Source: Phoronis australis
Taxonomy: Eukaryota > Animalia > Phoronida
DNA length: 64,000 bases
Assembly (NCBI GenBank): GCA_002633005.1
Contig: NMRA01000040.1
Coordinates: forward strand, 1,175,805 to 1,239,804
Reading direction: 5' to 3'
Below the pieces are notes generated by a model. The model did no database searches. It saw only the letters and a program-made list of their open reading frames with translations, and had not been told where the DNA came from. Shown one piece after another: positions 13,634-51,655 of the stretch. The position numbers were made by a program, and so were the translations under genes. Within the stretch, counting starts at the first letter, position 1. Each line of letters opens with the position of its first letter.

Positions 13634-14729
13634 AATGAGCTATATATATGCAGACAACACGACTATACTCGCAAGCCAGACAGCACGTGACACGCGGTCC
13701 ACCATATTGATGATGAACGCTATGTAAACAGAAGCACGGTGGCCTTATAGAAGCCGGGAAATTTTCAGAATGAAATTTGAAATTTTAAATACTAACAAGG
13801 TTTAAAATATTGGTAATATAAAGCAATGGCTGTACTTTGGGAGCAATTTTTTTGGTTATACAGAATTGATTAAACGCACGACACTTTTCATTGTTGACAG
13901 TCTTTATTCCGTTACGTTCATACTTTCGGAACAAAACTCTACTCTCAACTGAACATAGATAAAGTAACTGACCTACCAGTATAGTTAAAAGGCACACGAT
14001 ATTTCGAAACATACTCGTTTCATTCTCAAGTGAACATAAAAGGGCACAGTAATGCCACCACAGAGCATAAGCTGATAACACACACAGTGGGACACGGTGG
14101 GTGTGAAATACTGCAAAGAATGACTAATGAAGGGGGGTAACAGGAACTATTTTTCAGTTGTTTAAACCGGCAAGAAGATCAGCTGTCAAGGGGGCCGCTG
14201 CATCTCCAAAGTTTTTCGTCAGTGTCTAAAAATTCCTTGACCCGACGCCACTTGATTTACACTAAGTAAAAAAATTGAATAGAAACCCATGGAAATCGAA
14301 GCTCTCACAAACAACAGTATGCGTGCATGTAAAGTCATGTCATTGTATGCAATAATTGACCAATGGAACTGTACAGGTTTGTGTACATGTGCATACGGTA
14401 TTCAGAATTGAGGGCATGGATATGTTAACATTAAGTATTTCAATGAAAAAAATATGAATGCATAAAAGACACCAACAACAACTTGTACACGCACATATAC
14501 TTTGGTTAGCCGCGTGTGCCTGTGAACAGCACTGCTTGGGCGGTCAAAGCCGGAGGTCAAAGAATGCATTTGCACAGGCCCAATTTCCCGAAAGGTGATT
14601 GGAATTGTCTACTTCAGGTTATACCAAGGAATAATAATTATATCAATATGCAGATGTTTTTTCAAAAGTAAAATGCATGTATGGGGGGCTGAGGTGTCTC
14701 AAGAAAATATTACTTTAGTGATACGCTAA

Positions 14730-15060
14730 TGCCAAAGAGCTCATTAAGTCTTTGTAGAACTCTCCTTGCAACAGACGCATTCTCCTGCAATATTGTTACA
14801 TCATCCATAAACGCCCTGAGTCTCACCTCCCCCTGGAAGTTCCTCTTCATTGACACTTCTAATAATCATCTCCATTACCATTGCAAATGAGATAGGTGAA
14901 ATGGCATATGCCATTGCTATCCCTTGCTTCAGGCTCACATACTTTGTTGAATACTTTGCTGTAATGAAACGCAGCTTGAACTGATCAAAATACAACACTA
15001 AGAAACTTAGCAACCTTTGTGGAGTATGAAAAACTCCATTGCCAGTCTCAACATGCTTTG
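14730..15060 (-). pseudogene. Non-LTR retrotransposon reverse transcriptase fragment (Hero/R2-like)
   Basis: LKQGIAMAYAISPISFAMVMEMIIR then, after a frameshift, AFMDDVTIL...LQRLNEL: RT motifs 'GI..G..ISP..F' and 'FMDD'. Confidence 0.75.
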
Positions 15061-16264
15061 TGGAACAGAAAAAGCAATACAACAATGAATGATCCGGGTA
15101 GGATAATTTTCATAAAAAGTAAATGGTACTGGTGAGAAGCATCCAAAGCAGTAAAAAGGAGTGGACCAAAAACAGAACTCTTGCTTTTGCTATTGCTTTG
15201 GCTCTGAATTTTAATAGCTCTGTGCTTGTCTTGTTTGTTCAGTACCCGGTGTTAGCAGTGGAAGAAGGACCATGTTTGTTCATACAGTCAGTGTTTCACT
15301 GGGTAATCTGATAGAAAATTTTTTACCAGTTCACACATTGTGCTGAGTAATGGCTCAAGATGCTTTTGATTCAAAATGAGATGAAAGTGTAACAGATGCC
15401 GCATCATAGCAAAATCCAGACACATGTTCCAACACTACCCTTACTTGTAAAAACAACATTAGTCCAAATCCTTATGGTACACCAGTTCTGGCTAATATCC
15501 AATTCAGAAAAATGCTGGGAGCATAAAACACTTTCAGGCTTGATTCGTCAAGCAGCTTGCACCCATTTTTTACGCAAAGATTCATCTTTGGGAAACCTGC
15601 CACAAGAAATACCAGCAAAATATGAGAAATCCCAAATCAAGAGTTCACACAAAAAATATGTATTTTTACATAAAACGACTACTATTAAAATATAGTAGAA
15701 GAGTCAATAAGTCCAGATTATTTAACACTAGTTAAGGAAGGACTTTTTATTTAGTTATTCCTATAGGTGTCTCATAAACTGCAACAGACAGTGCTACAGT
15801 CTCACTAACAGTTGAGATTGTGGCCATCACATCTCTTGGCGCGAGCAGTGTAAAAATGGTCAGTTGCCGATTTGGGCAAATGAATGAAGGACTGATCGAA
15901 AAATGTTTGATTACAGAAGAATTTCTTCCAGTTGTAAGAATTGAAAGAGATAGACAGTCTCCTAATGTGTCCTTCTGTGCACAAAAGCTATTTATATCAA
16001 CGTGACTTAGATGGTTTAATCAGTGTAAGGCATAATTCGCCGAAAAGCTTACAGCATATGAAGGCCCTATGGGAGTGCCACCGTCTCTACTGCTAAGCGG
16101 TGGCAGTGCCTAAAACTACAAAGGAGAAGGGTGTCTGTGGAAGGTAGCATAAGATTGCTTCACTACAACAATGTAAAAATGGTTAAATGTGCAGCGAGTT
16201 CTTTCTTTCTCTTTTTTACACTTCACACTCAAAGTCAAATATTTCGGGGAGACACTTATGTACA

Positions 16265-16360
16265 ATGCTCGATTGTCTGCCAGTAAAGCCAGGATTCAAA
16301 CCCGGGTCTTCCAAAAAGGAGTCCAGAGCTCAATCCACTGCAACACACCATGGGCAGCCC
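16265..16360 (-). mobile_element. tRNA-derived SINE-like head
   Basis: Minus strand GTTGCAGTGGATTGAGC ... GGGTTTGAATCCTGGC (degenerate A and B boxes). Confidence 0.5.
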
Positions 16361-16824
16361 CCCCAGCCCCCTATGGTGCACTGCCCATGCACACTGTCTC
16401 CTCGTGGGGAATCCGGAACACTGGCCATGACATAAACATAAAAGGGGACACACTGACCTCTAGAATGTAAATTAAGGACAGCTGGGAGCTAAAGGTTTAC
16501 CACTGCTACTGGACAGGCTGAACTGCATTACACAGCGTCACACTGCACAACAGACACTGCGCAATTCGGGATCATCCTTCATTAAGTAATCAATTTCGTC
16601 AATATTCAGTCACAGTGACACACATGAAACATTAATATTTAAAAGCTCCGTGGAATAGTTACCTCTGTTTTTGTAGCTTTAGTTCTTTTGTCCAGCTGTT
16701 TTTGCAGTTAAATACTACACAGTACAAAGACAGATCGACTAACTTGGTTGGTCATCAAGATGACGGACCACTACACTCATCGTAAACATGTGACTTCAAC
16801 TCTTCTATATATTATCTCATTGGT

Positions 16825-18450
16825 TCTTATTATAAAGAAGACGGTTGACTGTTATTTTCCGATGACTTCGACTACTGTGGCGCCTCCTAGTGGCAGTTTT
16901 GTTTTTTGTCTCCATACCTCTATCTGGTAAGCCCTCTGCTGGATCTTTGCTAAATTTAGCACCTGTGTTTATATGAAGTTGACAATGGAAAGATGACAAC
17001 TTTCAGACAGATTCGACGAACATTGTCCCCTAGTGGCAGTTTCATTTTTTTCCACTTTCCTCTGTTTGTCTGCAGTTCCTTGACGAATTTTCATGAAATT
17101 TGGTAAATAGCTTTGTGTTAAAGAAATGATGACATTTTTCAGTTTCCATAAGGATTTGACGTATCATGCGCCATTTTGTGGCCATTGTTACTTTTTTCTA
17201 GTCTGTTTTTGGTATAAGCCCTCTGTCAAACGAACCACTCTTAGGATGATTGTGAAAACTGGCTTATTTGTTCTTAGTGTGAAGAGGATGTTTGACGATG
17301 ATTTTCCAACAACTTCAATTACTGTGGCACCTCCTAGTGACAGTTTTTTTGCACCTGTAGCTGTATCTCCTAAGCCGTCTGCAGGATCTTTATTAAATTT
17401 AGCAAGTGTATTGATATGACGTTGGCAACGGAAGACAACAACTTTCAGACGGATCCGACTAACGCAATGCCCCCAAGTGGCAATTTCATTTGTTTCCGTT
17501 TTCCTGGCTAAAGTTTCTTGACAGATTTTCCTGAATAGGTAAATAGCTTTCTATTTTGCACCATCTAGAGGCCATTTTTATGATACAAATGAACACCCCT
17601 GGAAGCACACCGTTTGTGCTTGCTGGTCCCCTACGTGCCTAGCCAGCACGCAGATATCACCTAGTGGCACGGGCTTTAGCATTGGTTGATGTAACCTCAG
17701 CAGTCATTGGTTAGCTTTACAACACTGTGAAAAAATGGCGGACTGTGAACCGAGACAGTCTTTGGTGTGAATGATTTTTAGCCTTGTCAAGCAAATGGCG
17801 TCGCAGCAACTATTTCGTTTCTGCAGTGATGTTTAATAGCCGCAAGCTTGAACCACATAAATGTACAATAAACACATATCTGGCCAATTAACCGGTGTGT
17901 TATTCATACTGTCTGAATAAAGGACAGTATCGTAAACAAAAGTCAGCGATAGTAGAAGATGCATTCCGAAAAGGCGCAACCACAAGTTCTAGGATTCACA
18001 TTTCCTGAACATAAATTTTAAGCACCGATTGTCTGTGCAACACACCACATTTACACTTCAGTCCATTAGTCATGCCAGCAAAACTATAGACTATCTATGA
18101 TGCCAGTTTGTTTGCCTAAAGCGCTGCCTGTTGAGAATTCGACTATCCAATCAGAAATGCCAGTGTAAAAAAATTTCCCGAGGAAAATTAAGTGATACCT
18201 GTGTGCTGGCTACTGACCACCTAGCTGCACTCAGGGAACCAGTGAGACCATTTGCTCCGCATTGCTCTTGTTATGAAATTTGGTAAATAGCTTTCTATTA
18301 AAGAAGCAGTGACATGTTGCCATTTTCGGATGGATGCAATTTTTTGTGCCTTTTAGTAGCCATTTTTAGGACAAAATTAACATCCCTTGAAGCACAATGT
18401 TTGTGGTGCATTCATGTGTGCATTTGAACACTTCGTGTTGCTCTTGTTTA
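16825..18450. repeat. Third cluster of the tandem-core (HINE-like) repeat family, with an unrelated insert at about 17625-18250
   Basis: Units ACTTCGACTACTGTGGCGCCTCCTAGTGGCAGTTTTG as at 2010-2050 and 2900-2940; terminal part ...CACTTCGTGTTGCTCTTGTTT resembles 5540-5565. Confidence 0.7.
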
Positions 18451-26748: not shown

Positions 26749-27339
26749 CTGGGAACAAATGAAAACATTAACGACCTCCTCAGAGGCATCTCTCTACGCA
26801 GTACTTCTAAACTTATAGGAACATAATTTGCCGAAAAGTATCCAGCATATGGAGTGCCTATGGTATGATCACCGTCTCTACTGGGTTAGCGGTATTGTCT
26901 AAGGCCTAGGCAGCCAAGGGGCTGAAGAAGTTAAAAAAACAACTGGTGATAATACTGAAATACACCTGGAAAACACCCAAGATGTACCTTTCAAAAACAT
27001 GTACCTGTATTTGAAAGCTATACTTCTTTCTCTTTCTTGAAATATGGTCCATAATATACTTTTCCTGCAAACAAATGATGCAATCATGTCACTTCAGAAT
27101 GTTCCTATCTTGTTCAGGTTAATTGGGTGTTTCAGATTTTGGAAGTATAATTGATTTTCTTGGGAAATCTTGGATAACATCTGTATCACTTTCAGCAACT
27201 TCAGCTTTAGTACTACTGCTGGTGCCTTGAAACGTTGCTATGCCGTTCTATGTCCTTTCATTTTTTGGTCTGACACTTGGTCTTCTAGTCAACAGCACTC
27301 GGCAGTATACGTAATACAGTACTGTGTAGGCTATACCAG

Positions 27340-27741
27340 GGGCCGGTCTCTAATCTTTGTACTCGAAACGAACTCGAAACTATTTTTGGCAATTTCTCTG
27401 CTCCTTTTGTGCGAACTTAAGATAATTGGTTATAAGACTGTGCTCGAATACATTATAGTTTATGCATAGGAGTTTCTAGTTCAAGTTTGCCCTTGAAGAC
27501 CCTTGTATTCGTGCTACAAACTCGAGTAAAAACTCGAAATTTCGAGTTCAAACTCTAACTTATTGCTTTAATATTGGGTTTACGAACTGTGAACTTAGGG
27601 CAATAGATTATCTACGTAAGTTATTGTGTACTCGAGCTTAGAATAATAAGACACTTATCTTCAGTTCGCCCAAAAGTAGAGTAGAAAATGCCAAACCTAA
27701 CTTCGAGTTCTATTTCGAGTAAAAAGATTGGAGACCGGGCC
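27340..27741. mobile_element. PIF/Harbinger-like MITE
   Basis: TIRs GGGCCGGTCTCTAATCTTTGTACTCGAAA / TTTCGAGTAAAAAGATTGGAGACCGGGCC; 3-bp TSD CAG (27337-39, 27742-44); internal ACTCGA motifs. Confidence 0.8.
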
Positions 27742-28006
27742 CAGGATATGCAGCTGTTTTCTGCACAGACGTTTGTGACACCTCTTCTTCTTTTTGACCT
27801 ACTGATCTACAGAGTTCCACAGTCCATCAGCTTTCGTCAGGAAGCTTTCCTAAGCTTCTTTAGGCTCTGGCATCACAATTTTGTGCTCTTTGATAAACCT
27901 TGGAATTATACAAGCATCACACTCAATGGGAGCAGCCATATTGAAGTAACTAAGCACAACAATACAATCTGGCTCTCTGATTAGTCAATTCAATAGAAAA
28001 GCGCTA

Positions 28007-28166
28007 TGGTGGGTAATATTTACGGACTTCTCCGATGCTGATCGAGTGGCCTCGGTTGTGGTTTATTGTTTGGTTGAGTGGCCACTCCGGGAATACTCTT
28101 GAGTCTGATCGTCGGACGTTTCAAGCTGGTGCTGTGGTCATTGTTCATGCAGGTAGGTATTCTACA
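28007..28166 (+). repeat. 5' LTR of the Gypsy element
   Basis: Starts TGGTGGG after GCGCTA and ends ATTCTACA; 28047-28166 is near-identical to 34422-34538. Confidence 0.85.
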
Positions 28167-28169
28167 GAT

Positions 28170-28183
28170 TGGTGTCAGGAGTG
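28170..28183 (+). promoter_or_regulatory. Primer binding site (tRNA-Leu-like)
   Basis: TGGTGTCAGGAGTG 3 nt after the LTR end; complementary to a tRNA 3' CCA end; TGGTGTCAG is a common Leu-type PBS in animal Gypsy elements. Confidence 0.8.
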
Positions 28184-28382
28184 AAATGGTTACGGTATAG
28201 TATAGGTTTATACTTTAAAGATATGCTTTAGGTGTGTTAAAGGAAAGGGATTTGTATTCGGTTATTGGTTTTTTGTGTTTTGTTGGGAATATTGTTCAGT
28301 TATTGTGTGTGGCGGGAAAAGGGGTGTGGTTTGAATTTTGACAAGGTAATTAATACGGGGATAGTGTTTTTTTTTTTCTGCA

Positions 28383-29921
28383 ATGGCTGAGGAACAGGAG
28401 GATATTGTCTGTATTATAAATATTTTGAGAGGGTTATCGGTTGCGGCATTGGAGAAGGCGGAATTTTTGGATAATGAGGTTAGGTTACAGTTAATTACTT
28501 TGAAGCAGTGTTTGGTTAGAAGTGAAGTGCTGGACAAAACGGGTGTGGCGTTACACTGAGAATTTGTAAATACAAAGAGGGGCCAGATGAGGCATAGTAC
28601 ACCGGTGGATGCTTTACCTAGTTTTGATACGGTGGATTTTGTGGGGAGTGATGAGGATGAAGTGAAGAGTAAGGAGAGGGTGCGTACTTTGAATGTGAAA
28701 GGTGTGAGGGACGAGCGGTCCTGNGGGGGGGGGGGTAGAGGGGAGCGAGCAGGAAGACGAGGATCTGCAATGGGGTAGACGTGAGGTTATAAGTAAGCGG
28801 AGTGATAGGAGCAGACAAGGACAGAGCCGGAGGGATAGTGGTAGAGGTAAGATGCTGGGAGACGTATAATGGTAAGTCTAGTGGTCGGCATTTCATATGA
28901 AATTTAATAGGTATGCTGTTGGGCAAGGATGGTCGGATAGAGAGTGTCTGGATAATTTGATTTTTTGTTTGGAGGGTGCGGCGGGGGAGTTTTTTTGACT
29001 ATGTATTTAGAACGGAACGGGGAAAGTACATAAGTTTCGAGGCTTGCACGCAATTAGAGAAGAGATTTAGCTCGCTGGGGTCACCAGAGATAGTGCAGTT
29101 AGAGTTCATGGGTTTAGTGCAAGGTAAGAAGGAGTCGGTTCATGAATGGGGCGATAGGGTGTGGAGTATGGCGAGTAAGGCGTTTAGGGGGGTGCCAGAG
29201 GAATACATGATGAGACAGGCGGTGTTGAGGGTGTGCTACGGATCGTGGGATAAGGAGGCAGGGTTGAACGTAGCCATGATGCAGCCATGCAGTTTCGTTG
29301 GAGGAGGCAGTCTTGAAGTTACAGATGCAAACGCAGGTATAAAAAGGGCAATCTTGGGTAAAAATGGGCCTCGTCTGGCGGGTGATCCACTGAAAGTTCG
29401 GAAAGTTCAAAAAGAGGGTTTTGGGGATGATAGTGAGGAGGTCATGGAAAAGATTTTGAGACAGTTGGAGGAGTTGAAGCAGCAGATAAATTCTTCTACA
29501 TCTAGGCCGGGTCTAGCGGGGTTGTTATACGTGTGGACAGTTGGGACATTTCAGTCGGGAGTGCGGTCAGAATCGGGTGAAAGGAGTTCCTAGGGAGGTG
29601 CGGTGTCAGATATGTAGTAGAGTGGGTCACAAGGCTGATGAATGCTGGTCGAAATCGGGGGACAGGTCTAGAAATGTAAGAGAAGGAGGTCCGAATATAA
29701 GGTGTTTTGTGTGTGGGGTGTTTGGTCATGTGGCGAGAAATTGTCAGAGGGTGAAGAGTAATAAGAGTATTCGACGTACGGGTAAGGAGTCCCAGAGTAG
29801 TGGAGATGAAGGTAGCGTTGATGGAAGAGAAGATCAGGTGGAAGTACAAAGAAGTAATCAGAGAAGAAATGAAAGTTGTAGCGGTAGTGGTGCTTTAAAC
29901 GGCAGGGGATTGGAGAATTAG
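28383..29921 (+). pseudogene. gag: Gypsy gag (frameshifted) with three CCHC zinc knuckles
   Basis: ATG at 28383; capsid-like YNGKS...GW...LIFCLEGAA...LEKRF...LVQGKKESVHEWGDRV; knuckles CYTCGQLGHFSREC, CQICSRVGHKADEC, CFVCGVFGHVARNC. Confidence 0.9.
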
Positions 29922-32900
29922 GCCGACCTTCAATCCATTTTAAGGGTCTGGTTAAAAGGGCTGAGATTGAGATGATTGGTTGGAGAGATATAGGTGTAGT
30001 CAGAGAAGAAGATAGTGTGAAGTTGGAGGTAAAAAGAGTTAGTGCCGATAAGACGTGTTTTGTGGAGGTGGTGGTGGGAGGCAAGAAGTGTCAGGCAGTA
30101 TTGGATTGTGGCGCTCAGGTTACGGTGGTGTCTGATAAGTTTTACAACTCGTTGCCTTGTAAACCTAAGATTGTTAAAGCGGTGAAATGAGTACGGTTGG
30201 GAGAGATTTGGATATGGGAGGGTATGTGACGGAGATGGTATCCCTGCACATGGGTATTAAGGTACGGTAGTAGGTTATATGTAGCGCCGATTGAGGATGA
30301 TATGCTTTTGGGGTTGGATGTGATCAGAAGGAATGGTTTAATTTTGGACTTCAAGAAGTTAGTGGTCAAAGAAGGGAGGCATTCTTGTCGGATATTTAAG
30401 GGTCACGGGGGTGTGGAACGGACTGTTGAAGAGGAGGTGGTTTGTTCAGTTAAGCGGGTGGTGATTCCTCCTATGTCGGTTAAGGCGATTTGTGGTAAAA
30501 CGAAGGGGTATAGTCGTAGAGGATGTATTCGGCCAGTCAAAGAGTCAGGGGTGATGGTGAGACAGGAACCTTGTGTGGTTGAGGCTGGTAAAGTATGGGT
30601 ACATATAGTTAATTTTGCTAATGTATCTAAAGTGGTGAGAGCCAATGAAGTGGTTGCGATGGTCGGGGGTGAGGTTGATGACCACGTGGAGGTGTGTCAA
30701 GTGGAGGTTCAGGTTAATAAGGAGGGTGTTCCGGAGCATATTAGAGAGTTGTATGCCCGGTCTGTGGTTGATATGTCGGAGGAAAACGCATTAAAGGTGA
30801 AAGAGCTATTAGTAGAGTATCAAGATGTTTTTGCCAAGGGTGATTTTGATTTGGGTAGCTTTGAAGCTATTAAACATGAGATAGATGTGGGAGATTCCAG
30901 GCCTGTTAAGTTAAGGATGAGACGGACACCTATAGAGTTTGTGGAAGAAGAAAGGGCACATTTGAAAAAGATGCTGGAGGCAGGAATTATTAGAAGGTCA
31001 GTTTCGGAGTATGCGAGTGCTCCAGTTATTGTTAGGAAAAGAGATGGGTCGATTAGGTATGCGATCGATTATAGGGAATTGAATAAAGTGACTAAGAGAG
31101 ATACTACCCCCCTTCCGCTGATTGAGGAATGTATTGATTCGATGGCAGGAAGTAGTTTGTATAGCAAGTTGGATGCTAATTCGGCGTACTATCAGATAAA
31201 AGTTAAGGAGGGAGATGAACATAAGACGGCCTTTTTAACTAAAGAGGGGGTTTTCGAATTTGTTCGGATGCCTTTTGGATTGAAGAATAGTGGGGCGACA
31301 TACTCTCGGAGCATGTTTTTGGTGTTGGATGGTCTTTTGTGGGAGAAGGTGATCGCGTTCTTGGATGATATTTTGGTAGTAGGTTCGACGATGGATGATC
31401 ATTTGTCTAATCTTAAGTTAGTGTTGGAAAGGTTTAGAAAATATGGACTTCGTCTAAAGCCTAGGAAATGCGAGCTATTTAAAGAACAGGTTACTTTTTT
31501 GGGTCGGCAGGTTAGAGCGAATGAGCTGTTTATGGGTGAAGAGCATATAGCTTCGGTACAGGAGTGGAAGAAACCTGAGACTACCAAAGACGTGGAAAAA
31601 TTTTTGGGCTTTTGTAATTATCATAGAATGTTTATCAAGAATTTTGCAGAGATGGTAGCTCCTTTATACTTGATAACTGGGAAACAGAAGTATGTGTGGA
31701 GTGGTATTCAGCAGGAGGCTTTTGTTATGTTGAAGAAGGCGTTAACGTCACCACCAGTATTATCTTTGCCAAATAGGGAGGATCAGTTTGTTCTTGATGT
31801 TGATGCATCCAATTACGCTGTGGGGAATGAATTGATTCAGGTTCAAGGAGGGGTGGAAAGAGTAATTGCATATGGAAGTGCGGCGTTAACTAAGGAGCAG
31901 AAGAGATATTGTACTACACGGAAAGAGTTGTTGGCTGTTCTTAAGTTTGTGAGACAGTTTCGACATTACTTATTGGGGAAGCGTTTTACGGTAAGGACTG
32001 ATCATAATAGTTTGGTGTGGCTTTTGAATTTTAAGGAACCGAGGGATCAGTTGGCACGTTGGATGGAAGAATTGAGCCAATATGATTTTGAAATTGTATA
32101 TCGGTCAGGTAAGGCCCATGTGAATGCGGATGTTTTGTCTAGATTTAGTGGAAGAAGATAAATATGGATGTTATCAGGGGGATGTCAATGTCAAGGATTT
32201 GCCGTGTGGAGGCTGTAGGTATTGTGTGAGGGCGAGTCAGAAATGGGCTAACTTTGAGTCGCAAGTTAATGATGTAGTGCCTTTGGCTAGTAGGTCGGGA
32301 TCTACCAAGGTTCGGGAAGTCGGAGAGGTTGAAGGTGAGTGGTCGAGGTTATGTATTGAGTGTATGGAAGATTATGTAGTGTTTCGGGTGGGAAATGGAG
32401 GTAATGAGTATACGATATCGAGACGGAATGCTCAGGTGAATAATATCTCGGTGCTTGACAATATTGAGGAAGGGTGCTTAATAGTAGAACAAGAGAAGGA
32501 TGTTGGATTGAGGAATCTTAGGGAGTGGTTATTACAAGGTACGATGTTGGACAAAGGGGATATGTTTCTGCTGAGTAAGGGCGAAAAGAAACTTTTGGTT
32601 TATAAGGATAGATATCAGATAATACGAGGATTGTTAATGAAGAGGAATAAGAAGGGGGAACTGGTAATAGTGGTTCCGGAGACATTGAAAGGTCAAGTGT
32701 TGCGTTTGTATCATGATGTTCCATTGGCGGGGCATCAGGGGGTAGTGAGAACGTTGGCTAAGATTAAGGAAAGATATACGTGGCATGGGATGAGCAATGA
32801 TGTTCGGAAGTATGTGGAGGAATGTGTTCAGTGTAGTCTGGGGAAAAGAGCGAGCAGGAAGGCTAAGGCTCCGATGACTCAGTTTCATGCTGGTGTTCCT

Positions 32901-34011
32901 ATGGAGAGAGTGCATGTGGATTTTTTAGGGCCTTTAAGCAGGACGGAGAGGGGCAATGAGTATGTGTTAATGTTGGTGGATCAATTTACGAAGTGGGTTG
33001 AATGTGTGCCGTTGCCATCTCAGTCGGCCGAGGTGACAGCTAGGGCTGCAGTTAATGAGTTCTTTAGTCGTTTTGGATTCCCGTTGATTATTATGAGTGA
33101 TCAGGGGGCTAATTTCGAGAGTACGTTGTACAAGTCTATATGTGAATTGTTGCAAATTCATAAGAGTCGGACGACTGCATATCGGCCATCTTGTAATGGT
33201 CCGGTGGAGCGATTTTTAAAACAGAACACTGATGGATGCGCTTAGATGTTATTTTGATAAGCATCAAGGGGACTGGGATTTATTTTTACCCCAATTAGCT
33301 GGTGCGATGAGAGCGTCTGTCAACAGGAGCACGGGGTTTACGCCGAACATGTTAATGTTGGGGCGTGAGGTAAGTTCCCCGGCTGATTTAGTGTTTCCGG
33401 AGTCGTCCGTGTTGGATGGTGAGAGAAGAATGAGTGAGGTGGATTATGCGTCTAAGTTGGGGACGGTTCTCAGTGAAGTACATGAGATTGCTAGGAATTC
33501 TCTTAAAGCTAGTCAGAGGATTATGAAGAGAGACTATGACCTGAGTATTAACAGATTGGGTTTCCAGGTTGGGGAAGTGGTGATGTTGTTGGATGAGAGG
33601 GTTTGTAAAGATCCTAGGTTGTGTAAAAAGTTGATGCCATGTTGGAAGGGGCCGGCTATTATTGTGGCTAAATTGTCAGATTATGTGTTTCGGGTAAAGA
33701 CCAGGGATAGGGCAGTAGTGGTTAATCATGATAGAATGAAAAAGTGTAAATGGCCAGAGTACAGATTACCTTGGTGGGTAAAAAAGGTAAAGGATGATAT
33801 AGAAGTTATAGCGAGGTGGGCGGATGGAAGGGTTACAGGTAAATTGTATTGCATCTGTAGAGAACCTAATGATGGGACTTTAATGGTACAGTGTGATGGA
33901 TGTTCTGAGTGGTTTCATGCCCGGTGCATTGGAGCTAATGAGCAGGAGTTGCGTGATATAGAAGATTATATCTGTCCTATATGCCGTAATGATGGTTATG
34001 ATTATTTGTAG
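29900..34011 (+). pseudogene. pol: Gypsy pol (protease, RT, RNase H, integrase, C-terminal PHD finger), broken into several ORFs
   Basis: LDCGA protease; MPFGLKNS and FLDDILV RT; DVDASNYAVG/ELLAV/TDH RNase H; H-H-C-C zinc finger, HVDFLGP, SDQGANF and ERF integrase core; WKGP GPY/F-like motif; YCIC...CDGC..WFH..C...CPIC PHD. Confidence 0.95.
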
Positions 34012-34012
34012 G

Positions 34013-34279
34013 ATGGCTCAACGTGTGGTGGTCGAAGAGTTGACGGCAGCGTTGAGGAGGGAGCAGTTGGTCGAGCCATTTAAGGTGATATCGAGGCTAG
34101 TTGAAGGGGACCCGGGGTGGGAGATGGCAAGAAGGTTGGTGGTGAGGTTCAGGACGTTGGCTCGGAGAATGGGGGACAGTGAGTGGGAGGTGAAGGCTGA
34201 AGGTTTGGTGGGTTTGCTGGGGGAGGATGAGGAGTGGTTTACGGGGAGGAAGTCGGTTTGGACAGAGGCGTGTCAGTGA
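34013..34279 (+). CDS. Extra 88-aa ORF between pol and 3' LTR, unknown function, not env-like
   Basis: ATG 1 nt after the pol stop, preceded by acceptor-like ttatttgtag; MAQRVVVEELTAALRREQLVEPFKVISRLVEGDPGWEMARRLVVRFRTLARRMGDSEWEVKAEGLVGLLGEDEEWFTGRKSVWTEACQ. Confidence 0.5.
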   Translation: MAQRVVVEELTAALRREQLVEPFKVISRLVEGDPGWEMARRLVVRFRTLARRMGDSEWEVKAEGLVGLLGEDEEWFTGRKSVWTEACQ

Positions 34280-34403
34280 GCTGGATGTTGTTTTTTTGGG
34301 GAGGATATAGGGGCACGTGTTCGCTTTTGGCATTTGCCGAGGTGTGTTTATAGGAGGGAGTCTGGTTTCGTGTTGAAGTTGGTTCGTCAGTTGGGGGAGG
34401 TCT

Positions 34404-34538
34404 TGGTGGGAAGTGGGGATTTGGCCTCGGTTGTGGTTTATTGTTTGGTTGAGTGGCCACTCCGGGTCTACTCTTGAGTCTGATCGGACGTTTCAAGCTG
34501 GTGCTGTGGTCATTGTTCTTGCAGGTAGGTATTCTACA
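34404..34538 (+). repeat. 3' LTR of the Gypsy element
   Basis: Starts TGGTGGG after purine-rich GGGGGAGG, ends ATTCTACA followed by GCGCTA. Confidence 0.85.
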
Positions 34539-35139
34539 GCGCTACCAAGTGGCAGGAATGTGCATCATATTTTGTGCAACAAAAACACCTTTTTTAAAAA
34601 AATGCATGTGGAAGTGTAGACGTGGGAACTTTTTAGAATTTGATTTATAGGTATATATCTAGCCACATAGGAAAAACTAGGTTGCCCCCCCAAAGTACTC
34701 ACAAGGATGAACGCTATGAGATCTGGCCCACCTATATACGTAGCCATAGTTACCTTACGATTTAGTCTCCTGCACAGCCCCACGTGACGTCAGGTTGTGA
34801 GGCCCGGGAACCAGGTTACCTTAAAAGTGCGTCTACAAACGGCAGACGACATCGCTGAAAGCAGAGGTACCGAAGCCGACGTTGTTCTTCATGAAGTTTG
34901 CTAACACTGTGACAAAGCGTTCGAATATTATATTTTGAAGTAAAACTATCATCCAGGAATTTGTTACTTGTTGAAAGGTATTTAAAATTTCCAAACCACC
35001 GTCTCGGAACCCGTTTCACTCGTTCACTCGTTGGGGAATTATTAGTATCGTCAATCTTTACTACTTTAGCCTATCTCTTATAGTCTTTATATATTATAAT
35101 TCGAACTTTCGACTTTCCTTGGTCGTGCGGACAGTTTTG

Positions 35140-39379: not shown

Positions 39380-41262
39380 GTAAAACCAAGGTAAACACAT
39401 TCACTCGTGCTGGGGTGCCATTTTGAACAGGATGAGCAACTGACCTGAATTTTTGCATGTGAATTCTCTAAGGTATGCTCTTTCATATGACCTGTAGCAA
39501 TTTTTTTCTTAGACTTACCGTTTTTGAGTTATTTGCATTTGAATTTCAAAAAAACCTGCTAAATTTGAAATTTTTTGAAAACCACGGAATTTTGTAAATC
39601 TACACCATTAGATAGAATTTTGAATGGGCTTTCTGAAGATGCTTTCCATTTTTCGCTAGGACCTCTACTTTTAGAATTATTTGAGATTTTCTGATAAGAC
39701 TGTTTCTTTGTTGACCATTTTGCTGCACTGTTGTTGGTTTACCTTCCATTGAACAAGACTAGCCTATTCCTTAATGATTTCTGACATCTTTGTTTGTTGT
39801 ATGATTGTTATCATCATGTTCATCATCGTCATCATCATCGTCGTCATCATCATCACCATTAAGGCCTTTTTAGTTATGTTCGCCAAGTGTCACTCCTCTA
39901 AGCACTTTCATTTCAATTGTTGCTTTCTTTCTCTTTATTTTGGAAAGTTAATCATTAATTAGCTTGTGTCGAACACAGCAGAATTTTTTGGTCAAAATCG
40001 ACTCGCATATGCCGAAGATATGCTTACATATCCATGAAGAGTTTCATTGAAGAACAGCACTGTGTGTGACATGGCATACAAATAGTGTCATCACCCTGAT
40101 TTGAGTTTCCAGTTGTGTAAATAGATTGGGCACTAGTAACCTATCTGACCTACGCTTGTAGACAGGCTAGTAATTACAATTCTGTTATCCATTTCAATAC
40201 AAAACATCAATATCAGTCAAAATATTATTTCACAGAAAGTTTCTAATGAATTACGAATCCCGATTTTCTGATAGCGCTGTTCCTTTGTTGACAGCTCTGC
40301 ACTGATGTTGGTTTAGCTTCTGTTGAATAAGACCAGGCCGCATTTTTCAACGTGCAGGGCTGAAAATTGGTACGATTGTTATAGCACACAAGCATCACAA
40401 CTGCACCGTAAATCTTTAACTTCCAGTTAAAGATGGCGGAAATATCGGCATTGGCACATGCGCACCTCGGTTAGTGGCCGAAAACGTTTTTTTCCTGTAG
40501 AGGGCGCATTGGCAAACCAATCACTTTCAAACTGGTCATGTGTTTGTTGAGTTTAATAAGCTTTTATAAAAAATTATTGAACCGAAAGTCACTTTCAAGA
40601 TGGCGGCTGTGGCGCATTTTCACCCTTTTCAATCTTTCTAAGGTCGCATTTTTAACGGGAAGAGCAAATGACGTGAATTTTTGCATGTGGATTCCTCGAA
40701 GTATGCTCTTTCAAAAGTTCTGAAATAACATTTTTCTCAGACTTACCGTTTTTGAATTACTTTGAATTTCAAAAAAACGCAAAATTTCAATTTTTTGAAA
40801 AAATTATGGAATGTTGCGAAACTATCAATTTAGATAGAGTTTGAAGTGGGCTTTCAGAAGATGTTTTCCATTTTTCGCTAAGATGTCTACTTTTCGAATT
40901 TTTTGAAATTTTCTGATAGCGCTGTTCCTTTGTTGAGCGATCTTACTGCATTGATGTTGGTTTAGTTTATTTGAACAAGACTGTAGTGTATTTCTTACTA
41001 ATTTATGACATCTAAGTTCGTCTTATGAATGTTATCATGTTCATTATCTCCGCCTTCATCGTCACGATCGTCGTCGTCGTCCTCCTCATCATCCTGTTTT
41101 CGCGTAATTTCGCCAAGTGTCGCTCCTCTGAGTGCGACGTGTGGATCAGAAAGTCCTGGAAGCCTATTGTTTTTGGTCATAATCGGATTCAAAATGGTGG
41201 ACGGGGCGGCCATTTTGTTTCCGATTTCGAATTCAAATGCTCATAGAGGCCGCATTTTTTTG
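39380..41262. repeat. Complex repeat with long (~0.7-1.2 kb) diverged units, left block
   Basis: Recurrent TTTTTGCATGTGGATTC, CTCAGACTTACCGTTTT, GGGCTTTCAGAAGATGTTTTCCATTTT, AAGATGGCGG and (TCA/TCG)n segments, shared with 48990-51655. Confidence 0.8.
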
Positions 41263-41264
41263 AG

Positions 41265-44200
41265 TTGAAACTTCCGTTATAAAAATGAACTAAAGTTTTC
41301 ATCGAAAAACTTAAGTTTTTGGTCTGAAAAACCTAAGTTTTCATTCAAAACTTAAGTATTTTGGAACAAGTTTTTTGGAACGAACATAAGTTTTCATAAC
41401 TTAAGTTTTTCAAAAACTTAAGTTTTCTGCAAACTTAAGGTTTAAAAACTTAAGTTTGTTCCAAAATACTTAAGTTTGTGGAAAACTTAAGTTTCAAAAA
41501 CTTTGGAAGAAGTTTCTAGTAACAAACATAAGTCATCAAAACTTTAGTTTTTGAAAACTAAGTTTTCCGAACATGAGTTTTCAAAGAACTAACTTTTGAA
41601 AACCGAAGTTTTCTAAAAGCAATAAGTTTCAATAGGACAGGCATTCTAAAATTTCGATTTTCACTAAAACAAGAGTGGAGTACGGTAACAAATTTAATGA
41701 TTCTCATAAAGATTTAATTAGCTAGAGTTCTATTAACATTTCATTAACAGTGATTAATAGCAGAAAATAAAATGCACTTCCTAAAATACACTAGTTCCTT
41801 AAAATAAGTGAACATAAGTGAAATATCAAAATCTTAAAAACCAGAAACATTTCAAAAATCAGTTCAATTAGTGTCATGCATACAATTCAGTGAAAACTAA
41901 ATGAGGCTAATAATATGTTCATATGGTCATATTCTCAGTCTATGACAATTAAGCGATAACTGAGGGAGCAAAATGGAATGTACAAACAGAGAAATCATTA
42001 CCAAATCATGAAACACAACCAAAGAAAATGTGATTACATAGCCAGGAAGGACTACAACAAAAGTCTACGTTTCAACAGCACAGACTTTTCCAACTAAAAT
42101 TACAGCAATGTCACCAAGAATAACAAATCACTTACCGTAAACGTTTGCGTTAACGCCCATGCTCAGTTAACCGCCCACCCCCTACTTTAGTTGGATTTTC
42201 AATTCAACCGTCCACTGCTCGGTTAAGCGCCCCCTGCGATTTTTGAAGATTTCCAGTTAAGCGCCCACCTCTCAGTTAAGCACCCATCCCCGACTTTTAA
42301 AGAATGAAGATTTAGCGCCCAGTGCTAAGGAAACCTGTGATTCCCCGACTTTTACAAAAAGATAGATGATCACAATGAGCGCAACAACGCCGGACCTCCG
42401 AGACGGTGGTTTAGCAATGTGAATTACAATACAAGTAAGGAGTTATTGTCTTGGGTCATGGACTCACTTCAAAATATAATACTTTAACGTTTTTGTCACT
42501 TTATTTTCTTCCCATGTTTGCAAAGTTTAAGAACGCCGCCGGCGTCAAAACCTCTGCTTTCAGCGACTTTGTCTGCCGCACTGAGTTTCGGTCTGCAGTG
42601 CACTAGATAAAATATATATTCGAAAAAATCAGGCCAGACAAATGTGACAATGATTTTGCCAACCCTCCAAATTCTCTTAAGGTTGGAAGCTGTAGTATTT
42701 TGAAGAAATCTCACAACTCACGAAAAGATGTCAAATTCTCATTTTGATAAATGTAACTGCCGGGTTATTGAGGATGTGTGGCGACCGAAGGGACAGTACA
42801 AGTGCCTTACTGGGTTACCGATTTCGTTGCTGCCTATCGATTTCTGAATTCAAAGGTTGGAAATAATTTATGTTTGTGTATGATCTTGAAGTAATAAAAA
42901 ACTGCTAGTGAAATTTTGTTTTTCGCTTATTGCATCTCAGTCAAACTGACGTTAGCAGATTTAACTAATGTCGTTGGCTGTTCTTTATTTTTTCTTGCGT
43001 CAGCCCCCGTGACAGTGTGAATTATGGTTTCCTCATTCCCTTTTTAGCCATCCAGAATAATTTTGTTTATACATTGGCCAGTTCCAGCCTGAACAAAAAT
43101 TCTTACCATTCGAGTCTGAAATATCCACGGCATAGATTGACTGAAAATTGGCAGTAGTGGGTAGGAGGTGCACGCAGCTAGCTACGGGCATGGGCTTAGG
43201 GAGCATGAAGCCGGGAAACATCCGAAGAACTGGGTCTTTTGTAACAACCGGTTAAAAGTACATAGTCACGCCCGTTCAGTCTGTTCCTTAGAATTGTCGC
43301 TATTCTATTTTGATGTGTGACTTGGTAGTGGTGTACGTGCGCAAGTTCCCACACTTTGGAGTGCATGTTACCTTGACATCAACGTGTGATTGACAGGTGA
43401 CTCACACGTAGGCCCTACGTGCATGCTGAATCCCGCCGCTATTGCGGCCATAAACAACGAGATGCATATTGAAAGAGGCTGTTATATTACTTGACGGCAT
43501 TTCCAAATCACGATTGTCAGCCGACTGAGACATTGCGCGCTAACAGTGGTACCGAACAGTGCCGCAGTGCGATATTGTAGGTGATGTAAATAGGATCTGG
43601 ACATCTTAGATGTAAAATAAATGTTTTTCCACCACGAACTTTGGTAAGGTGATCGTCTAAGAATGAATTGAAACATTGCTGTTTTGTGACGTTTTATCAC
43701 ATATTTATGCCGTGGCTCGAAATTTTGTTCTTGATTGACGAGTGGCTCACGACCGCTTAACCCCGATTCTTGTCTTACTTCTTTGCCGAGCATGTTTTGC
43801 GCAACGGCAAGTGAGCAATGCCGGGCAGTCGAGATAAAACAGCTGGCCGTAGAACCATACGCAGAAAATGTCATTGAGTCACGGAGTGTCGACTATAAAC
43901 ATCCCAAACACAAAAAACATCAAACTTTTATTACAACTGCTCTCCATGAACTTGACAGCTAGCACGAGGTGCACTTTAGCAAGATCACATCTTGAAATAG
44001 TAGCAATCAAAGTTGAGGCTGCGTGGTCACTGATCGTCTGCGCTCTACAGGGCAAAGTAACAAGACCGCAGGACAGCACGGGGCTATTACTCAGCAATTC
44101 TGTAAATTTAATAGTGAATAACTAATCTGAGGGCAATAGGACCTTTGTTGGGATCATCCGCTGTTATGACATGTTTTTGTCATGTGGCGAGGTGACGTTA

Positions 44201-47200: not shown

Positions 47201-48997
47201 GTGCATAACAATTGTTAACATGTTAACTGGTGAGAGTTCACTTGGGTACATTGTGACCTATGCCAGGGAGGTATTCCAGATAGGGTACTATGAGTGGAAT
47301 TGCATTCAATAACCTAGATTCTCCCGACAAACCTGAGCAAATCAGTCAAAATAGGCAATACAATAGTTACATTGGTGATTCTTAATTTTGAGACCCAGGC
47401 ACATGCGCTCACCAAGGGGAGGCTCGAATGAGCATCCCCCACTTGCCAAAGTGGGCATGAAAAGGTCAGCCTCATAGAAAAAAAAAATGAGAAACCGAGA
47501 CACAAGTCCACTAAAAAGCTGTAAATCAGGAATGCACTGTGCACAGCTCTGAATATACCCCGTTTTTTTAGTAAAAGGTCAACATGTCTAAAAATTTGAG
47601 CATCCCCCATATTTTAGGATTGGTGTGTGGATGAGGCAAGTGAACGTTGCAAATTATTGAACTGTCGTGATATGAGATTTCAAAATAAAGAGCTTCCAAG
47701 AATTACTACAAACATAGACATAAGCGCACACACAACCAATGCCAATATACCCAACTTGGGAAATGATTACACTTTGCCTTGGTTGCCGCCCCCCCCCCTT
47801 GCATTGATGCTCACTGACACAACCTCAGAAGACAGAAATATAATAAGAGTAATAGCTTTATGTGAACGTTATGGCTTCCTGTGATGGACCTCCAGAAGTA
47901 TATTACGCGTCAGATGTTTAGATAATTCACACACAGAATGAGTCCATGTCGGCATGTCGGTATGTGACAGCGTGACTCGTGAGTGGCTGACAATAACAAC
48001 TGAACTTAACACCTTCGTTGGAAATCACAGAACCGATTGTGGTCAATAGATTTTAGAACGCTCTCTGACACTAACCTGACTTTCAAAACTTCTGAAATGT
48101 CTTCTTGCTGGCTCTGCTCGTAGTAATATAAACTTCATTGTCGCGGGCTAACACACGACTTTTTCTTCGAGTTCAAACAGTTGACTTCCGGTGGAAACTG
48201 CCTTACAAATACAATCTCAGCACAAAGAAAACTTGCTCAATAACTATGTTTTTTAAAGAATTGCACGAGTTCTATTTATTACATTGTACTGACCAAGTCA
48301 GTGTCTCAGGGGATTAATATTGGGTGCATTCTTACTGCTGTTGGTCACCGGATGTTCGTCTACATTTAAATTCACAAAGACATGAGACAGTGATTATATA
48401 ATTGCACTAATTCTGTACTGACCCGTTTAAACGTTTGTCGTTTTATGGTTTGTATCTATATAAATGTTAAGGAAACATTCGGGCAACATTTTTATGAGAT
48501 GATGGGTTTTGCATGAGCAAGCAATGATTTTTTGTTGGAAAATAATGGGAAAAATTTTGAACCAAAAATTAAATATCTCACAATATTCAAATTTTAAAAA
48601 CTTGAAAATGTAAATTTTCATCACATAGAAACCTTAGTCAGAGTTTTTAGAAAATTCAAGTTTTCCACAAATGAAAAAAATCCAGTTTTTTGAAAAACTT
48701 AAGAAGTCAGGTAAACTTAAGTTTTTAAAATTACAAAAACTTTTTTTTGTCTTAAGTTAAGTTATCAGAAAAACCTTAAGTTTTGTTAGTATAAAAAACT
48801 GAAGTTTTCTTGAAAACTTAAGTTATTACTTGAAACTTAAGTTTATTTGTGAAAACTTAGTTTTACACCTAAAAAATCTTAAGTTTTCTGAAAAACTCAA
48901 GTTCTCTGAAAAACTTAACATTGCGCTGAAAAACTTTAGTTTTTGGCGAAAACTTAGTTTTAAAAACTTAAGTTTCTTTTAAAAACTTTTAGAGGGT
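41265..48997. mobile_element. Putative EnSpm/CACTA-like DNA transposon relic bounded by arrays of AAAACTTAAGTTTT
   Basis: Dense arrays of the palindrome at ~41285-41630 and ~48650-48990; splits the complex repeat into two blocks; right end TTTTAGAGGGTG resembles CAC.CTAAAA termini. Exact ends and TSD not resolved. Confidence 0.55.
42135..44441. mobile_element. Pogo/Tigger-like non-autonomous DNA transposon nested in the EnSpm-like element
   Basis: TIRs CCGTAAACGTTTGCGTTAACGCCC / GGGCGTTAACCCGAAAATTTACGG, TA on both sides (42133-34, 44442-43), subterminal TTAA(G/C)CGCCC repeats. Confidence 0.82.
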
Positions 48998-51655
48998 GCA
49001 TTGGCGAACCAATCACTTTCAAACTGGTCACGTGTTTCTTGCAATTGATCAGCTTTTATAAAATTTTGTTTAACCGGACGTCACGTTCAAGATGGCGGCT
49101 CTGGTGCATTTTCACCCATTTTCAATCATTCTGCTGTTGCCTTTTTAACGGGAAGAGCAAATGACCTGAATTTTTGCATGTGGATTCCTTGAAGTATGCT
49201 CTTTCAAAAGTTCTGCGATAACGGTTTTCTCAGACTTACCGTTTTCGAGTTATTTGATTTTGAATTTCAAAAAAACGCAAAATTTCAATTTTTTCGAAAA
49301 AATTATGGAATGTTGCGAAACTATCAGTGAATCTAGATAAAGTTTTGGACGGGCTTTCAGAAGATATTTTCCATTTTTCGCTACAACGTCTAACTTTTTA
49401 TATAATTCGACATTTTCTGGTAGCGCTGTTCCTTTGTTGCAATTTTTGACGTACAAGGTTATTGTTTTTGGTCATGATGGGATACAAAATGGCGGACGTG
49501 GCGGCCATTTTGTATCCGATTTCACAGTCAAATACTCGTAGAGGCCGCATTTCTCGACGTACATGGCTGAAAATCGGTACGATTATAGTAGAACGCATGT
49601 GCTACAAGTGTGCAGAAAATCGTTGACTTCTGGCCAAAGATGACGGATATATTGGAAGTGGCGCATGCGCACCCCGAAATATGGCCAAAAACGTTTTCTC
49701 CTGTAGAGGGCGCATTTGCAAACCAATCACTTTCAAACTGGTCACGTGTTTGTTGAGTTTAATAAGCTTTTATAAAAAATTATTGAACCGAAAGTCACTT
49801 TCAAGATGGCGGCTGTGGCGCATGTTCACATGGTTTCAATCGTTTTGGTGTCGCATTTTTAACGGGAAGAGCAACTGACAGGAATTTTTGCATGTGGATT
49901 CCTTGAAGTGTGGCCTTTCAAAAAGTCTGTGAGAGCGTATTTCTCAGACTTACCGTTTTCGAGTTATTTGACTTTGGATTTCAAAAAAACCAGCAAATTT
50001 TCAATTTTCTGGAAAATTTTTTGGATTTTTGCCAAACTACCACTTTAGATAGAGTTTTGAACCGTCTTTCAGAAGATATTTTCCATTTTGCGCTTCGACG
50101 TCTACTTTTTGACTTATCCGAGATTTTCGGATACCATTGTTCCAATTCGGTCACCTATGCAAGGACCCAGCTGGCTGACTTTCAGTTCATTTTGTTTTGG
50201 TTATGCCTAGTTGACCCAGACTGACCCAGCCAGCACTGTCCTACTGTAGACTGGACCGTCATGTTGCGCCATCTATTGTTCTTTATTGTAGTTGATTGTA
50301 TGCTCTCTATTTGATTTCTTCGCTAGTCACATGAATGTTATCGTGTTATTCATAATTGCCGCCTTGATCGTCCTTATTGTCGTCGTCCTCCTCATCGTCG
50401 TCTTTTTGATTAATTCTGTAAAGTATTGCTCCTCCGAGCGCTCTCGTTTTTTTTTATTTTATTTATTTTTTTGTTCGCACGATACATGTCGCAATTTTCA
50501 TCCGATCATCACGAAATTTGCACATAACATGTACTTTTGAAAGTACTGGAAGCCTATTGTTTTTCGTTATAATTGGATCCAAGATGGTGGATGTGGTGGC
50601 CATTTTGTTTTTGATTAAAGGTTCAAATGCTTCTGGAGGCTACAAGTTTTTACGTACAAGGCTAAGAATTGGCACAGTAAATGGACCGGAAGTGTGCTAC
50701 AAGTAGACCAGAAATTGTTTAGTTCCAGTTTAAGATGGCGGAAAAATCGGTGATCGCACATGTGCACCTCGATTTTGGCCTGGAAACATTTTCTCCTGTA
50801 GAGGGCGCATTATAGGGCCAATTCCTTCAATTTTTTTCAGATATTATTTTTTATGATCTGCTATTATATCAAGACAAAAAACCGGAAGTTGCTTTCAAGA
50901 TGGCGGATCTGGCGCATGTTGACCCATTTTCAGTCGTGCTGGAGTGCGATTTTAAAGAGGAAGAGAAAAAGACGTGAGTTTTTGCATGTGGATTCTTTGA
51001 GGTATACTCTTTCAAATGACCTGCAACAATTTTTTTCTCAGACTTACCGTTTTCGAGTTATTTGACTTTGAAATTCTTAAGAAAAACGCAAAATTTCTTT
51101 TTTTTTTCAAAAAATTTACAGAATTAAGCGATACCATCAGATTAGATAGAACTTTGAACAGGCTTTCAGAAGATGTTTTCCATTTTTTGCTAGGATGTCT
51201 ACTTTTCGAGTTATTTGAGATTTTCTGATAACACTGTTCCTTTGTTGATCGCTCTTTCTGCATTAATGTTGGTTTATCTTCTATTGAACTAGACTATAGC
51301 CTATTTCTTATTGATTTATGACATCGTCATATGAATGTTATGATGTTGTTCATAATTGCCACCACGATCACTATATTCGTCATCTTTGTCATCATCTCCG
51401 ACGTCATCTTTTCTTCAGTTAATTTCGCCAAGTGTCGCTCAAGACTGTAGCCTATTTCTTAGTGATTTCTGACCTCTACGTTTGTCATATGAATGATATC
51501 ATTACTTGCATTGTCCATCATTGCCACCATCGTCGTCATAGCTGTCATCTTCGTCATCATCTCTGTCGTCGTCTTTTCTCGTCATCTCTAACATGTTTTT
51601 TTGTTGTTAATTTTGCCAAGTTTCGCTCCTTGGAGTGCTTTCATTTTCTTATTTG
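48990..51655. repeat. Complex long-unit repeat, right block (about three more units)
   Basis: Units beginning AGAGGGYGCATT at ~48991, 49706 and 50801, each followed by TTCAAGATGGCGG and CTCAGACTTACCGTTTTCGAG. Confidence 0.8.

Follow-up and report, generated by a model that had tools for sequence, protein, structure and literature searches.

Can an LTR retrotransposon of animals carry its own reader of an active chromatin mark, and would such a reader influence where the element inserts? The question was raised by a locus of Phoronis australis (contig NMRA01000040.1), analyzed here within a stretch of 64,000 nucleotides that is called the window. A preliminary description had placed a PHD finger at the C-terminus of a Gypsy integrase in this locus, had compared it with the chromodomain of chromoviruses, and had proposed that the lineage may target H3K4-methylated chromatin.

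Organization of the Element in the Window

The interval 28005-34538 is a decayed copy of a Gypsy LTR retrotransposon with a PHD-tipped pol (Table 1). It belonged to Ty3/Gypsy in having protease, RT, RNase H and integrase in this order after gag, as well as two LTRs, a primer-binding site and a short target-site duplication. Upstream of the PHD finger, Pfam confirmed the order of zinc knuckles, protease, RT, RNase H, integrase H2C2 and rve. The matches to RVT_1 and RT_RNaseH reached E 2.9e-30 and E 2.4e-31, and those to protease families were near or below the cut-off. The 5' LTR started with TA, not TG. The primer-binding site, which we take to be of the tRNA-Leu type, was accompanied by no tRNA gene in a search of the window.

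Table 1. Features of the element copy, in positions of the window.
Feature	Position	Strand	Evidence or remark
Left target-site duplication GCGC	28001..28004	.	Empty-site joint 27999>34538 and sequence
5' LTR, ~160 bp	28005..28166	+	Contains splice donor 28152/28153
Primer-binding site (TGG...)	28170..28183	+	Sequence
gag, multiple frame breaks, three CCHC knuckles	28383..29921	+	Pfam zf-CCHC E 3.4e-14
pol part 1: aspartic protease, RT (FLDD), RNase H	29888..32161	+	Pfam
pol part 2: integrase H2C2 domain and DDE core	32124..33245	+	Integrase_H2C2 E 5.7e-20, rve E 2.8e-13
pol part 3: end of integrase core, C-terminal domain (WKGPA), linker, PHD, stop	33220..34011	+	
PHD finger, C4HC3, Y-M-W cage residues, F after W	33844..33984	+	Pfam PHD E 2.5e-10
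Splice acceptor	34000..34012	+	AG 34010-34011 is the final two bases of the pol stop codon
ORF3 remnant: N-terminal helical domain, stop 34277-34279, weak start of Cys/His middle domain	34013..34425	+	
3' LTR, truncated	34422..34538	+	Lacks bases 1–42 of the 5' LTR
Right target-site duplication GCGC	34539..34542	.	Empty-site joint and sequence

Frame breaks were located by tblastn of five intact relatives against the window. The relatives matched gag in pieces in three frames, pol part 2 was flanked by frameshifts near 32146-32172 and near 33215-33220, and one stop codon separated protease from RT. With these changes the copy in the window is dead. An internal deletion ending in the 3' LTR extended back into ORF3. 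Other copies had no stop at 34277-34279, and their sequence diverged from that of the window after 34425; a deletion at this point removed the rest of ORF3 together with the beginning of the 3' LTR. A strong strand bias was observed in 28005-34538 (2205 G vs. 737 C, skew 0.50), and the skew of seven relatives was 0.06–0.14.

Several further features were noted in the window. A 168-codon frame on the plus strand at 62387-62893 presumably resembles LINE ORF1 (a coiled coil and then an RRM-like part). The AT-rich interval 4219-5186 was open in all six frames and is probably a simple repeat. Diverged direct repeats were present with a period of ~0.7–1.2 kb at 39400-41500 and 48800-51450, and with a period of ~0.4–0.9 kb at 1700-3000 and 13100-18300.

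PHD Finger at the Tip of the Integrase

The finger scored 40.7 bits against a Pfam cut-off of 24 and comprised residues 209–255 of the stop-to-stop frame 33220-34011. It lay on the plus strand and, as the preliminary description had stated, between the two LTRs, and it was a real PHD finger at the C-terminal tip of the integrase, the place that a chromodomain occupies in chromoviruses. No chromodomain was detected there by Pfam at E 0.05; the families found at this position were PHD families. The finger was indeed in frame with the C-terminal region of the integrase, but the motif in that region was WKGPA and not the GPY/F that had been reported, and Pfam Integrase_p58_C matched it below its cut-off (E 2.5e-4). 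The proposed fusion of integrase and PHD was continuous in intact relatives, whereas in the window the frameshift at the start of pol part 3 split the PHD frame from H2C2 and most of the DDE core, so that this copy cannot make the fusion protein. Other copies in the same organism, seen in contigs and a few reads, were free of the integrase break.

The best PDB matches of the finger in the window were PHF2, DIDO1, BPTF, CXXC1, Spp1 and PHF8 (E 7e-15 to 9e-12). A profile of 28 PHD rows gave E-values of 8e-22 for CXXC1, 1e-21 for PHF2, 9e-21 for BPTF and 3e-20 for DIDO1, and of 2e-7 for ING2; no ING protein did better than 2e-7. The subtype was thus PHF2/PHF8-CXXC1/Spp1-BPTF-DIDO, which upholds the BPTF and PHF8 likeness suggested before, but not that to ING, which ranked far lower. 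The PHD fingers of CXXC1, PHF2, BPTF and DIDO1 read H3K4me3, and the aromatic cage of such fingers is built from Y/F, M and W. The element finger had the C4HC3 zinc ligands of a reader-type PHD, and its cage positions (Y/F before C1, M, and W before His) aligned without gaps to PHF2, DIDO1, CXXC1 and BPTF. The cage residues were as claimed: the complete Y/F-M-W set was kept in 131 of 138 element fingers, a count in which the retention of W is partly preset because W forms part of the C4HC3 search pattern. The cage M was present in 138 of 139. The element finger is predicted from these alignments to be an H3K4me3 reader.

Absence of the finger from relatives, or a lack of constraint on it, had been named beforehand as evidence against a function; it was present in most relatives and constrained. 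Of 30 sequences with a PHD (the window and 29 loci), the 22 that had at least 200 stop-free codons were used to examine selection. Over 231 pairs, most of them with saturated pS and one of them identical, the mean pN/pS was 0.29/0.89 for the PHD, 0.31/0.85 for the integrase and 0.53/0.78 for the linker. The closest non-identical pair had a PHD pN of 0.013 and a pS of 0.39. These values indicate that the PHD is under purifying selection, with a constraint equal to that on the integrase. Among the base differences listed for the PHD in copies of P. australis, five of nine altered a residue, and one hit a zinc ligand (4/5 reads in RNA run X5, 1/5 in X6). Some transcribed copies therefore have a damaged finger.

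Distribution of the PHD Finger in the Lineage

A protein search with the integrase-PHD frame returned 138 longer proteins, and the C4HC3 pattern was found in 92 of the 120 listed. Since such a query favors PHD carriers, the search was repeated with the RT-RNase H part alone; the finger was again present in 92 of the best 120 pol proteins. Nine of the remaining 28 fitted a basic-tail pattern, and most of the others ended early or out of frame. When both searches were pooled (188 proteins), a full C4HC3 was found in 135, and in 131 of these it lay no more than 30 residues from the C-terminus. Judging from these records, the C-terminal placement is not a matter of chance. The PHD carriers spanned bivalve, gastropod and sea-urchin records, with Pinctada, Mytilus, Ostrea, Nucella and Lytechinus among the named hosts. 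Hits filed under bacterial MAGs are read here as host DNA. Viral contigs gave 68 pattern matches, none of which was confirmed.

The RT/RNase H tree comprised 147 rows, that is, the window and 146 of the 188 proteins, which matched over at least 380 residues; the tail and truncated labels were assigned by hand. One branch (SH-like 99) contained 125 rows, of which 106 including the window had the PHD, 19 were truncated and none was complete and PHD-less. The other branch contained 22 rows: 18 PHD-less rows with a basic tail, three with the PHD and one truncated. The same two-branch split was obtained in an IQ-TREE subsample of 44 rows, and a single origin of all PHD rows was not rejected (AU p 0.33). 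The PHD is the mark of a large RT clade. The trees were made up of search hits and had no outgroup, so gain and loss of the PHD are indistinguishable in them. The RT of the window was on a long branch.

The PHD-less proteins mostly terminated in a basic motif, T/S-R-x-G-R...P-x-x-L. At the pol end of the sister branch, an acidic linker and a tail of the kind T/S-R-x-G-R...P-x-x-L-x-D-Y replaced the PHD; such C-termini were seen in proteins P0104-P0111, P0119 and P0169-P0188 and in loci L011, L014, L017, L020 and L065. Basic tails of this sort may bind nucleosomes, and the tail of the sister elements is a possible alternative chromatin tether. Additional domains were noted in single relatives. 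A Tpt1/KptA RNA 2'-phosphotransferase domain was present in pol of P0141 and P0168; in P0141 (Pfam E 4e-43) it followed the integrase core and preceded the PHD. A helix-hairpin-helix was present at the gag N-terminus of P0140.

Third ORF with a TatD Nuclease Domain

A third, spliced ORF behind the PHD stop adds to what had been described. In the window, an ATG at 34013, just behind the stop of the PHD frame, opened a frame of 88 codons. A PHD with a stop was found in 29 of 68 related loci, most of which then had homologous ORFs directly behind it (up to 1085 residues). Among loci whose sequence continued for 3 kb or more behind the PHD, the N-domain of ORF3 was present in 15/15 and a downstream TatD in 14/15; with at least 400 bases, the counts were 24/28 and 18/28. 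A protein search with ORF3 gave 156 relatives, and the named hosts were Dreissena, Mya, Pecten, Argopecten, Ruditapes, Haliotis, Lingula and Strongylocentrotus.

Pfam TatD_DNase was detected in seven of the eight long ORF3s scanned (E 1e-27 to 1e-38); the eighth ran off its contig. The ORF3 profile scored an eel protein at 185 bits, bacterial YcfH at 143, human TATDN3 at 71 and human TATDN1 at 54. The record of the eel protein says hypothetical, and we take it to be TATDN2. Seven active-site positions of TatD, which are metal ligands, were checked and were retained in 123–127 of 127 rows. The relatives' ORF3 had HxH plus the ligands E, H, H and E/D in a TIM barrel, which places it in class II (YcfH/TATDN2/TATDN3) as that class is defined in the accessible part of PMC10085689. 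ORF3 of the fuller relatives thus encodes a predicted TatD nuclease. A TatD ORF3 was also present in the PHD-less loci L011, L014 and L065. It is thus distributed more widely than the PHD, and the two domains need not work together.

The AlphaFold model of ORF3 consisted of three confident domains with disordered linkers between them, and the last of these was the TatD barrel. The middle domain had a C-C-H-H pattern (pLDDT 92). Its sequence, in L029:6202-6669 and homologues, read C-x4-C...H-x4-H and continued into a helical bundle with an H-W motif; PHD-less relatives carried an additional Cys/His insert. No match to the middle domain was obtained among 48,161 chains (best Z 3.1) or among viral models (best E 1.2), which implies neither a new fold nor a function. 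ORF3 resembled env in its position and its spliced message. It was not an env of the errantivirus type, as Pfam found only TatD in it and the model showed three globular domains. In individual relatives, PF13837 (P0244) and a zinc knuckle (P0227) were observed on ORF3.

The copy in the window retained the front of this gene. The N-domain profile ranked the remnant first of 1819 window tiles (E 0.0016); shallower profiles had scored it at E 0.4–0.5. The match of the middle domain to the remnant was not significant (E 1.6), and the TatD profile, which matched 28 of the 68 loci, did not match the window. A search of the 88-residue ORF3 against 1.84 billion representatives gave four matches, all of them repeat proteins, which were rejected. 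No hit above 0.79 was obtained in Atlas searches with this ORF or with residues 1–325 of an intact ORF3.

Splicing of the Third Gene

RNA runs, included on their species label, contained a joint 28479>34028 with 12 letters between its two sides, in nine reads of X5 and nine of X6. The first mate of these spliced reads was always on the minus strand, and the joint was absent among those listed for the DNA run X1. The intron of this major form extended from GT at 28479 to AG at 34011, with its donor inside gag at 28478/28479. Further read ends were loose at 34010 (12 and 11 reads). The donor in the LTR was used in two reads of run X7 and, in a second count in which the reads were placed on the right LTR, in three reads of this run. 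An acceptor-like site preceded the ORF3 ATG in 15 of 24 loci, compared with 335 of 3474 other ATGs (9.6%; p 3e-10), at a score threshold of 7, just above the score of 6 of the window's own site. A stricter pattern found few sites and missed that of the window. In both splice forms, as derived from the sequence, an ATG in another frame precedes ORF3, which would therefore have to be translated by leaky scanning.

Insertion Site

The empty-site joint of Table 1 was represented by 45, 37 and 21 RNA reads in three runs, with 5–6 letters that fit either side, and by one DNA contig at a depth of 375; it revealed the GCGC duplication. The target was a high-copy repeat, with a flank depth in the thousands. 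Flank CpG o/e values of 0.65 and 0.84 were ordinary and within the range of the window. The target repeat (27750-28004 and 34539-34830) was transcribed. Beside it, at 27339-27745, there was a MITE-like element of ~400 bp with terminal inverted repeats, which reached a very high depth among the DNA contigs and was abundant in RNA reads. The 29 relative loci of at least 6 kb gave no clean LTR pair with flanks; these contigs look like collapsed ones. The single readable insertion site lends no support to targeting, although one old copy says little.

Relation to Known Elements

Gypsy elements with a histone-reader module at the end of the integrase are known from the chromoviruses, which share the Gypsy domain order with the lineage described here (Gao et al., 2008, as cited in the accessible part of PMC6673714). 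Chromoviruses, however, carry a chromodomain; the present lineage has a PHD with a predicted preference for the active mark H3K4me3 instead of a heterochromatic one, animal hosts and a spliced TatD gene. PHD fingers have been reported in CR1 LINEs, in Gypsy-7a of Chlamydomonas and other algal elements and in Ginger1, and an effect on insertion has been suggested (accessible parts of PMC6673714, PMC9940879, PMC2836005 and PMC8557442). Guidance of a transposon by its PHD has thus been proposed before, for elements other than the present one (PMC6673714, PMC9940879, as far as accessible). Gypsy-7a_cRei and REM1 are the most similar in having a Gypsy Gag-Pol with a PHD and a proposed influence on insertion (PMC9940879; Perez-Alegre, 2005, as cited there), but their host is a green alga, a figure legend puts the PHD before INT, and the accessible text of PMC9940879 mentions no TatD gene. 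Ginger1-9_HM also has a PHD C-terminal of a Gypsy-type integrase, although Ginger1 is a DNA transposon in which the PHD accompanies a Ulp1 protease domain (accessible part of PMC2836005). In CR1-type LINEs the PHD is carried in ORF1 (Kapitonov and Jurka, 2003, as cited in the accessible literature). CopiaMBD of arthropods is comparable as a captured host chromatin-reading domain with proposed steering of insertion, but it reads methylated DNA and belongs to the Copia superfamily, and its binding was tested (accessible part of PMC6673714).

For the third gene, the closest parallel is the non-env ORF3 with a 3'-5' nuclease in Juno and Vesta of bdelloid rotifers. That nuclease, however, has a DEDDy fold and not a TatD barrel, and the accessible part of PMC5408684 reports no PHD-tipped integrase. 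By sequence, the two captured domains were most similar to host proteins, namely to CXXC1/Spp1, PHF2/PHF8, BPTF and DIDO1 on the one hand and to TATDN2 on the other. Host TATDN2 has the class II HxH site and a long disordered region before TatD, as in the element ORF3; the latter adds the N-terminal helical domain and the Cys/His domain, both of which are lacking in the eel protein. According to the accessible parts of two reports, TATDN2 breaks down RNA within R-loops (PMC10711561), and germ cells require it (PMC12709183).

Methyltransferase-carrying elements have also been described (PMC5890265; bioRxiv 10.64898/2026.05.21.726589, as far as accessible), and the word PHD is absent from the main text of PMC5890265. 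Surveys of mollusc and annelid Gypsy elements set their clades (MolGy, Cigr-1, etc.) by RT, and the accessible main text of both contains neither PHD nor TatD (PMC6238403, PMC8556966); the lineage may therefore already have a MolGy-type name. In the literature covered, which lay outside Repbase, GyDB, Dfam and most subscription journals, no Gypsy clade of animals was found to be described with a PHD at the C-terminus or with TatD in ORF3.

Possible Role of the PHD Finger

We consider it somewhat probable (about 0.6) that the PHD attaches the integrase to nucleosomes methylated at H3K4 and gives insertion a bias towards active chromatin. The integrase, once released by proteolysis, would carry the finger on a variable linker, the Y/M/W cage would hold H3K4me2/3, and the integration complex would be tethered by the PHD to active chromatin. 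Insertions would then be biased to promoter-like nucleosomes or to the open, transcribed chromatin of germ cells, and the PHD-less sister branch may tether through its short basic tail. The third gene would be expressed from its own subgenomic RNA in the manner of env, and its TATDN2-like domain might trim 3' ends or the RNA of RNA:DNA hybrids, either while reverse transcription is under way or at insertion sites rich in R-loops.

That the finger binds methylated H3K4 only for retention on chromatin or in the nucleus, or for an action after insertion, with no bias in site, seems unlikely to us. In favor of this reading, the sole insertion site read was a repeat with no visible promoter, the sister branch manages without a PHD, and the same caveat was made for the MBD of Copia (accessible part of PMC6673714). 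However, the location of an old, fixed copy is shaped by selection after its insertion in addition to targeting, and it is from this position, at the tip of the integrase and behind a variable linker, that the chromodomains of chromoviruses steer insertion (Gao et al., 2008, as cited in the same source). It is less likely still that the ligand is something other than methyl-H3K4, such as unmodified H3, a host factor mimicking methyl-lysine, or a protein of the element, e.g., ORF3. PHD fingers have varied ligands, and ORF3 offers two confidently predicted domains with no assigned function; yet the cage positions all match those of methyl-lysine readers and are near invariant, and the nearest solved relatives are of the methyl-lysine-reader subtype.

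The broken copy in the window and the damaged finger of some copies in the organism could also be explained if the PHD were a passenger without effect, an exon captured from the host, or a chimera of assembly or annotation. This is highly improbable, since 135 independent proteins from bivalves, gastropods and sea urchins carry the PHD at the same place, pN was far below pS in the PHD, and reads and contigs spanned the integrase-PHD junction; on these data the reading is in substance refuted. Docking on H3K4-methylated nucleosomes could also be part of a larger scheme, which we regard as possible and on the whole doubtful: this animal Gypsy branch would be the active-chromatin mirror of the chromoviruses, in which a promoter-mark reader replaced an older basic tail and a spliced, R-loop-resolving TATDN2-type nuclease was added, so that the element seeks out promoters with H3K4me3 and removes RNA:DNA hybrids at these sites or in its replication intermediate.

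Implications

The proteins of these elements are a trap for annotation, as they are filed as 'COMPASS component SPP1', as a 'TatD family hydrolase' of bacterial MAGs, or as uncharacterised host genes. A chromatin reader of their own is known from few LTR elements, and in the tested case, that of the chromodomain, it points away from genes. If the present reading is true, a reader of an active-promoter mark would offer a natural system in which to test whether an element can direct itself towards genes with a domain that it encodes. The sister branch, which lives in the same animal groups without the PHD but with the third gene, would serve as an inherent control. Such a reader would be relevant to the remodeling of promoters by insertions in shellfish and sea urchins, as well as to the general problem of integration targeting.
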